Assembly: GCF_006345805.1 (NCBI RefSeq)
Contig: NC_043003.1
Coordinates: forward strand, 85,932,001-85,996,000
Direction: 5' to 3'
From: Octopus sinensis
Taxonomy: Eukaryota
Length of the DNA stretch: 64,000 bases
Shown here: positions 32,069-32,166 of the stretch, one piece after another
How the letters are laid out: every line of letters starts with the position of its first letter
Numbering within the stretch: the stretch's first letter is position 1
The notes under the pieces: generated by a model
Seen by the model: only the letters and a program-made list of their open reading frames with translations
Told to the model about the DNA's origin: nothing
Databases searched by the model: none
Translations under genes and position numbers: made by a program

Positions 32069-32166
32069 TCTTTGGACTATGCATAGTTTCGACATACATA
32101 TTGGCATACCGATTTAATTAAATCAAATTAAATCTATTTGCCACTGGCCTGTCTCGTCAGCAAAGA
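32069..32166 (-). ncRNA. Type I hammerhead ribozyme, canonical core
   Basis: Minus tctttg-CTGACGA-gaca..tgtc-GAAA-ctatgcatag-TC-caaaga; 6-bp stem I; GUC site; in an element (~31945-32322) flanked by (TA)n. Confidence 0.85.

Follow-up and report, generated by a model that had tools for sequence, protein, structure and literature searches.

An intron of an octopus receptor gene carries what appears to be a complete hammerhead ribozyme. Where does such a ribozyme come from, and does it cut the transcript in which it lies? These questions were approached in a window of 64,000 nt from Octopus sinensis (the whole stretch of DNA that was analysed) and in the contig around it, C7. A complete type I hammerhead is present on the minus strand and is the sole descriptor match on either strand of the 64-kb window. 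The parts of the motif and of its host gene are the following.

32055..32178, minus: full type I hammerhead, including the extension of helix I past an internal loop (fold, pair counts)
32166-32161 with 32074-32069, minus: helix I, UCUUUG/CAAAGA, 6 bp
32154..32160, minus: 5' half of the catalytic core, CUGACGA (sequence)
32153-32150 with 32094-32091, minus: helix II, GACA/UGUC, 4 bp, with G10.1-C11.1 at its base
32091..32153, minus: helix II with a long AU-rich hairpin extension that replaces a small loop 2 (sequence, fold)
32090-32087, minus: GAAA (sequence)
32087-32076, minus: 12-nt palindrome of helix III (sequence and fold)
32075, minus: C17, with the predicted cut between 32075 and 32074
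48580..48763, minus: LGR-type receptor exon, residues 412-472 of P0001, 98% identical, with AG and GT ends
1..48579, minus: part of the host intron that lies in the window, continuing to C7:85890629

The window copy has the sequence features of type I: the core CUGANGA, GAAA, UH, three helices and an open helix I. An earlier note on this DNA had described an intact core, a 6-bp stem I and a structured extension of stem II, and this description stands. CUGACGA, G10.1-C11.1, GAAA and C17 are all present on the minus strand, 32166-32161 pairs with 32074-32069, and the extension appears in the predicted fold. The limits that it gave, 32069..32166, take in the core and helices but are too narrow, since pairing resumes beyond an internal loop (CCCU/AGGG) that interrupts helix I, stretching the ribozyme to 32055-32178. 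A U after helix I and a G...A in loop 2 have a role in the contact between loop 1 and loop 2. The window copy has this U and a G...A closing loop 2, and its loop 2 is itself a long hairpin; among 116 copies of the family described below, the U is found in 96 and the closing G...A in 43.

A chance match to a short motif would be in keeping with the Rfam result, which is a library score distinct from the biochemical definition of a hammerhead: 0 hammerhead matches at the gathering score over the whole window, and at E<=10 on 31500-32800 only simple-repeat noise (18 matches, no hammerhead). The long helix II insert is probably the reason for the Rfam miss. The predicted fold is more stable than expected (z = -2.74); 2 of 200 shuffles are equally stable. 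The descriptor itself yields 0.06 loose and 0.01 strict matches per window in 100 locally shuffled windows. This low rate, the existence of hundreds of copies and their compensatory base pairs already refute a chance match, and its probability is negligible.

The exon at 48763-48580 resembles LGR4/5 and glycoprotein-hormone receptors, and P0001 is an octopus LGR5-like receptor according to its source label. Sixteen more exon matches, 81-100% identical to P0001, are collinear with it on the minus strand between C7:86.16 and 85.78 Mb; one of them overlaps another as a near-duplicate, and a few short parts of P0001 are unmapped. The mapped exons of the receptor gene are intact. The same strand as an LGR exon had been claimed for the motif, and an intronic position had been considered conditionally. 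Both points are borne out: the flanking exons, at 48763-48580 on the minus strand and from C7:85890628, make the ribozyme intronic and sense. By arithmetic on the exon positions, the host intron is 89,951 nt long, with 16.5 kb between the donor and the predicted cut site and 73.4 kb between that site and the acceptor. Because the next exon is this far downstream, time is available to cut. Elsewhere in the gene, C7:86159301-86162105 holds two matches to P0001 residues ~68-127, ~2.7 kb apart and 100% and 82% identical, possibly a duplicated or neighbouring LRR exon.

The insertion and its repeat family

The ribozyme belongs to a short insertion with these parts.

31933..32324, minus: 5'-truncated solo retrozyme copy of 392 bp, unit positions 66-472, 92% identical to the unit of locus L007
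31898..31946, no strand assigned: (TA)n run at the 3' end of the element, likely target site (sequence)
32324..32356, no strand assigned: (TA)n run at the 5' end of the element (sequence)

The earlier note had treated the ribozyme as a feature of this locus. It is intronic and sense, as that reading had it, but it is also part of a mobile repeat family that had been overlooked: its 17-nt 3' half has 554 exact matches in the genome as opposed to 1 for a control. The exact core has 83 matches compared with 0 for its control, and scoring 40 of 2,169 candidates gave 66 matches at 83-100% identity. The repeat unit is ~460-472 nt long, non-coding and joined head to tail, with a GC fraction of 0.34-0.36 (3 units). 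Family dimers and trimers carry a ribozyme in each unit at a spacing of 459-472 nt. A next unit follows in 44/82 loci, an inverted piece is present in 32/82, and 64 of 129 unit ends are joined directly to the next unit. Insertions end at two fixed points, either the unit end or ~88 nt beyond it (the tail). Stops at the unit end run into (TA)n in 42/65 cases, and tail ends do so in 46/50. Two ribozymes occur in cis at L060, L066, L069 and L139. The window copy has only one ribozyme, and a second ribozyme palindrome is absent from the 389 kb of the LGR gene that were scanned. Decayed family copies (66-86%, both orientations) lie at C7:86104449-86108702, within a different intron of the LGR gene. 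At L065 and L139, whole insertions with their flanks are repeated, with spacings of 1,418 nt and 528 nt, which suggests later local tandem duplication.

The window copy differs by 2.0% from the majority of other copies, and the median is 2.3% (29 copies). Its private changes are 7 substitutions, a 14-nt deletion and a 1-nt deletion, none of them in the core or helices I-III; the core is intact in 26/29 copies picked by BLAST. By these counts the window copy is a young, neutrally diverged solo member, as diverged as its siblings. No target-site duplication is readable, because both ends of the element are inside (TA)n. A 62-bp direct repeat, 79% identical, lies on either side of the insertion (32395-32456 and 31818-31879); it was rejected as a target-site duplication, being too diverged and not abutting the insertion. 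Contigs from four sequencing runs (two studies; RNA status guessed, strandless) cover parts of the element. At 32006 and 32035 the contigs of all four runs have the letters of the family and not those of the window copy, and they are uninformative on transcription or cutting of the locus.

The pairing of the ribozyme is maintained across subfamilies. The pairs were tallied in 116 copies, drawn from 122 loci. Pair I.3 is U-A in 61, C-G in 51 and unpaired in 4, and pair I.5 is C-G in 97, U-A in 14 and unpaired in 5. Pair II.2 is A-U in 99 copies and G-C in 12, pair II.4 is A-U in 106 and G-C in 8, and N7 is free to vary. A C at core position 4 occurs in 8/116 copies; a retrozyme subfamily (L034, L035, L037, L134, L137 and L142) has this C for U and, in helix II, a compensated pair. 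Among 20 copies hand-picked from 101, 8 pairs have changed on both sides, and the paired cells and the covariation score beat 500/500 shuffles. The number of pair types does not support covariation (16 further types compared with 17 in shuffles, 449/500). Invariance of the core and helix III follows from how the loci were chosen, and about four inherited events, not dozens, lie behind the compensatory changes. Judged from this pattern of pairs, selection on the ribozyme is at the level of the family.

Folding predictions and cutting

It had been proposed that stem III can close as a hairpin or pair in a dimer. The dimer is favoured in prediction, with helix III alone at -15.9 kcal/mol as a duplex, as opposed to a marginal +0.4 as a hairpin. 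Two ribozyme molecules are predicted to co-fold into a double hammerhead at -76.7, compared with 2 x -32.1 for separate molecules. At 4/4 tandem loci, the double hammerhead is predicted to cost less (3.5-12.2 kcal/mol) than the single form (11.3-16.3 kcal/mol). Animal type I ribozymes have been described as double hammerheads (PMC4209133).

For a solo copy, the predictions point to a brief period of activity that is ended by a second structure.

32036..32074, minus: rival hairpin, predicted to capture the 3' strand of helix I, with the window copy's 1-nt deletion, 32044, inside it

The active fold of the solo copy is predicted to be ~3 kcal/mol off the ensemble when the RNA 3' end lies at 32060-32045, and its cost reaches ~10 kcal/mol once 32036 is transcribed, since the 3' strand of helix I is then paired with a run of pyrimidines downstream. 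Across 78/101 copies of the family (23 with a broken pair or no flank were omitted) the median goes up from 3.0 to 6.15 kcal/mol, and the ~10 of the window copy lies above it. The downstream hairpin is thus predicted to turn the ribozyme off ~25 nt after its synthesis. Since the folding energies omit Mg2+ and loop-loop or tertiary contacts, they understate the active fold. The window copy is predicted to cut weakly alone, and its cutting of the nascent intron may be regarded as a possibility, not a function.

A functional intronic ribozyme would cut the LGR transcript ahead of synthesis of the next exon and lower receptor output, as proposed for CPEB3. The copy is sense and intronic, its core and all pairs of helices I-III are intact, the U after helix I and the G...A closing loop 2 are in place, and the active fold is near the ensemble at 32060-32045. 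Time would also suffice: the polymerase would need ~18-21 min from the cut site to the next exon at the mammalian rate given in PMC10919898, and related invertebrate monomers cut at 0.1-0.8 per min (mussel 0.1, coral 0.8; PMC7229834). Against this, the copy is young with a divergence like that of its siblings, most of whose cores are also intact. Its folding cost at 32036 exceeds the family median, and the 389 kb scanned offer no partner palindrome. Moreover, 8/9 predicted frog retrozyme dimers failed to cut in vitro (bioRxiv 10.64898/2026.07.22.740005), and slow intronic ribozymes are reportedly without effect on splicing (Fong 2009, as cited in PMC10919898). A functional role at this locus is very unlikely on balance.

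The 5' ends of family insertions might record cutting. They were collected from 47 insertions chosen by their 3' part only, which gave 60 pieces, 13 being dropped as second pieces of one insertion. In a 30-nt interval 3' of the cut that was picked after inspection of the data, 5' ends fall in 18/42 of the pieces reaching it, compared with 13.7% expected (p=4e-6). The difference from the adjacent upstream 30 nt (6/24) is not significant (p=0.12), another maximum is seen between -180 and -151 (5/14), and only 2/60 ends are exactly at the cut. The pile-up is a hint of in vivo cutting, and reverse transcriptase stalling at hairpins explains it equally well. A bolder account is that family ribozymes cut in vivo in a brief co-transcriptional window gated by the downstream hairpin, that the pile-up records this cutting, and that the sense copy in the window cuts some of the LGR pre-mRNA as it is made. 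We think this improbable; if true, retrozyme insertions would be transcript attenuators in very long introns of octopus genes.

Penelope-like signatures and the candidate mobiliser

Penelope-like elements (PLEs) leave partial tandems, inverted 5' pieces, a tail and microsatellite targets (PMC8557442), and the tail is the gap between two internal reverse transcription (RT) start sites (PMC11167929). The octopus family shows all four signatures: tail, partial tandems, inverted 5' pieces and (TA)n targets. Identity with an autonomous PLE was rejected, as a frame with RT plus GIY-YIG between pseudo-LTRs is absent in the 122 loci examined, a sample that was joined by only 40 of the first 100 listed among the 554 places. 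No PLE frame is continuous with the unit in these loci.

A young PLE is present in the genome in at least 150 copies, and all 150 that were scored are 95-100% identical. Three copies have 717-aa frames (L115:1963-4113 on the minus strand, L116 and L117). Its motifs RWK, DKT, CxCX5C, CxxC and CxH are the defining ones of the Hydra clade, whose targets are (TA)n runs and from which canonical hammerheads are reported (PMC8557442). On these motifs the young PLE is a member of the Hydra clade; the assignment rests on them because the GIY-YIG Pfam score, taken on the C-terminal part only, is weak (E=0.018). The Hydra-clade section of PMC8557442 names Mollusca and no cephalopod. The 3' repeat of the PLE at L115-L119 contains a hammerhead-like variant with the core CCGAAGA, a helix II of 4 bp, GAAA preceded by an additional U, and a minimal helix III; its core can pair with a downstream CUUCGG.

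The young Hydra PLE ends at the same two points as the retrozyme, the unit end and the tail, and it adjoins retrozyme insertions at L018 and L037, an adjacency for which the shared (TA)n target alone could account. In the one PLE family compared, its terminal repeat has no sequence homology to the retrozyme (206/500 shuffles score as well), a point against this PLE as the mobiliser. A partnership of the retrozyme with the Hydra PLE is likely. Near some retrozyme loci there are also PLE fragments that we take to be Neptune-like. Within the window, 45697-46200 (plus) is an old Hydra-like RT fragment, 27.6% identical to the young element, and 29203-29352 (minus) is presumably, by its motif, a fragment of a PLE GIY-YIG endonuclease, without a Pfam match. 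Pfam searches of 10 window frames gave nothing above the cut-off, including the frames at 8709-9975 (plus), 41363-41932 (minus) and 51452-51727 (plus), which we take to be LINE- and mariner-like.

The insertion could instead be a solo pseudo-LTR, left by an autonomous PLE with coding copies that have been lost or lie outside the sample; the mechanism would be the same and the label would differ. The tail, inversion and (TA)n signatures are PLE-type, Hydra-clade elements are reported with canonical hammerheads (PMC8557442), and retrozymes are derived from pseudo-LTRs in bioRxiv 10.64898/2026.07.22.740005. On the other side stand the direct junctions at half of the unit ends (64/129) and the 122 loci in which no PLE frame runs into the unit, and the pseudo-LTR label seems an unlikely one.

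It is highly probable, in our judgement, that the ribozyme sits in a solo copy, truncated at its 5' end, of a non-coding tandem family with a ~470-nt unit, likely a PLE-moved non-LTR retrozyme and as such a non-autonomous derivative of PLEs, and that it is likely a passenger and a predicted weak cutter when alone. The motif, the family with its architecture, the intronic position and the compensatory pairs are observed; in the mechanism proposed here, which draws on the anatomy of the family and on published retrozymes, we infer cleavage, RNA circles and the identity of the mobiliser. Tandem copies would be transcribed. Two ribozymes would then join through the 12-nt palindrome as a double hammerhead, freeing the ~470-nt unit, which a host ligase may circularise. 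A PLE protein, most likely of the Hydra clade, would nick a (TA)n run, and reverse transcription would begin at the internal starts, unit position 472 or about 88. The outcome would be tandem, tailed, inverted or 5'-truncated insertions. Because the window copy reads through the cut site, its template would have been an uncut multimer or a ligated circle.

Comparison with known systems

In the features that could be read from sequence, the family matches a non-LTR retrozyme. Like the metazoan non-LTR retrozymes of coral, mussel and axolotl (PMC7229834), it has a non-coding tandem unit, one type I hammerhead with a palindromic helix III, GC below 50%, solo and multimeric copies, and PLEs in the genome. 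The octopus unit of ~460-470 nt is longer than the 150-450 bp given there and, at ~470 nt, is within the 51-972 bp range of bioRxiv 10.64898/2026.07.22.740005. It differs from metazoan retrozymes in its long AU-rich helix II extension and its clear tail and inversion signatures. The ribozyme is shut in the fold of the predicted octopus circles but free in most circles of animal retrozymes. An 'active' retrozyme is one with two ribozymes in cis (bioRxiv 10.64898/2026.07.22.740005), whereas the window copy has one. Introns hold about 42-44% of retrozyme copies in frogs according to the same preprint, so the octopus locus is ordinary in this respect.

Hydra-clade PLEs (PMC8557442) share with the octopus family partial tandems, inverted 5' pieces, an optional tail, (TA)n and a hammerhead in the repeat. 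Unlike them, the family has no RT or endonuclease frame, and its tail is ~88 nt as opposed to 30-40. Its repeats are without detectable homology to those of the local Hydra element.

The amniote intronic hammerheads of RECK, CTCL and DTNB (PMC6155905) and the ribozyme of CPEB3 (PMC10919898) resemble the window copy as single sense motifs in long introns. These ribozymes are single-copy and deeply conserved, whereas the octopus copy is a recent one among hundreds and has kept its element and target runs; the CPEB3 ribozyme is of HDV type. A domesticated intronic ribozyme of the RECK type was rejected, since such ribozymes are single-copy and this one has 83 exact-core and 554 3'-half matches.

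No cephalopod or octopus retrozyme was found described in the paper listings searched, and the main text of a 2026 octopus repeat annotation (PMC13282606) mentions neither hammerheads, retrozymes nor Hydra elements. The family adds a cephalopod member to the retrozymes. Its PLE signatures and a co-resident young PLE with full-length frames make it a good system for the mobiliser question, namely which enzyme moves animal retrozymes and whether the templates are circles or cut linear RNA. If the intron is truly cut, the locus would offer an invertebrate parallel to CPEB3.
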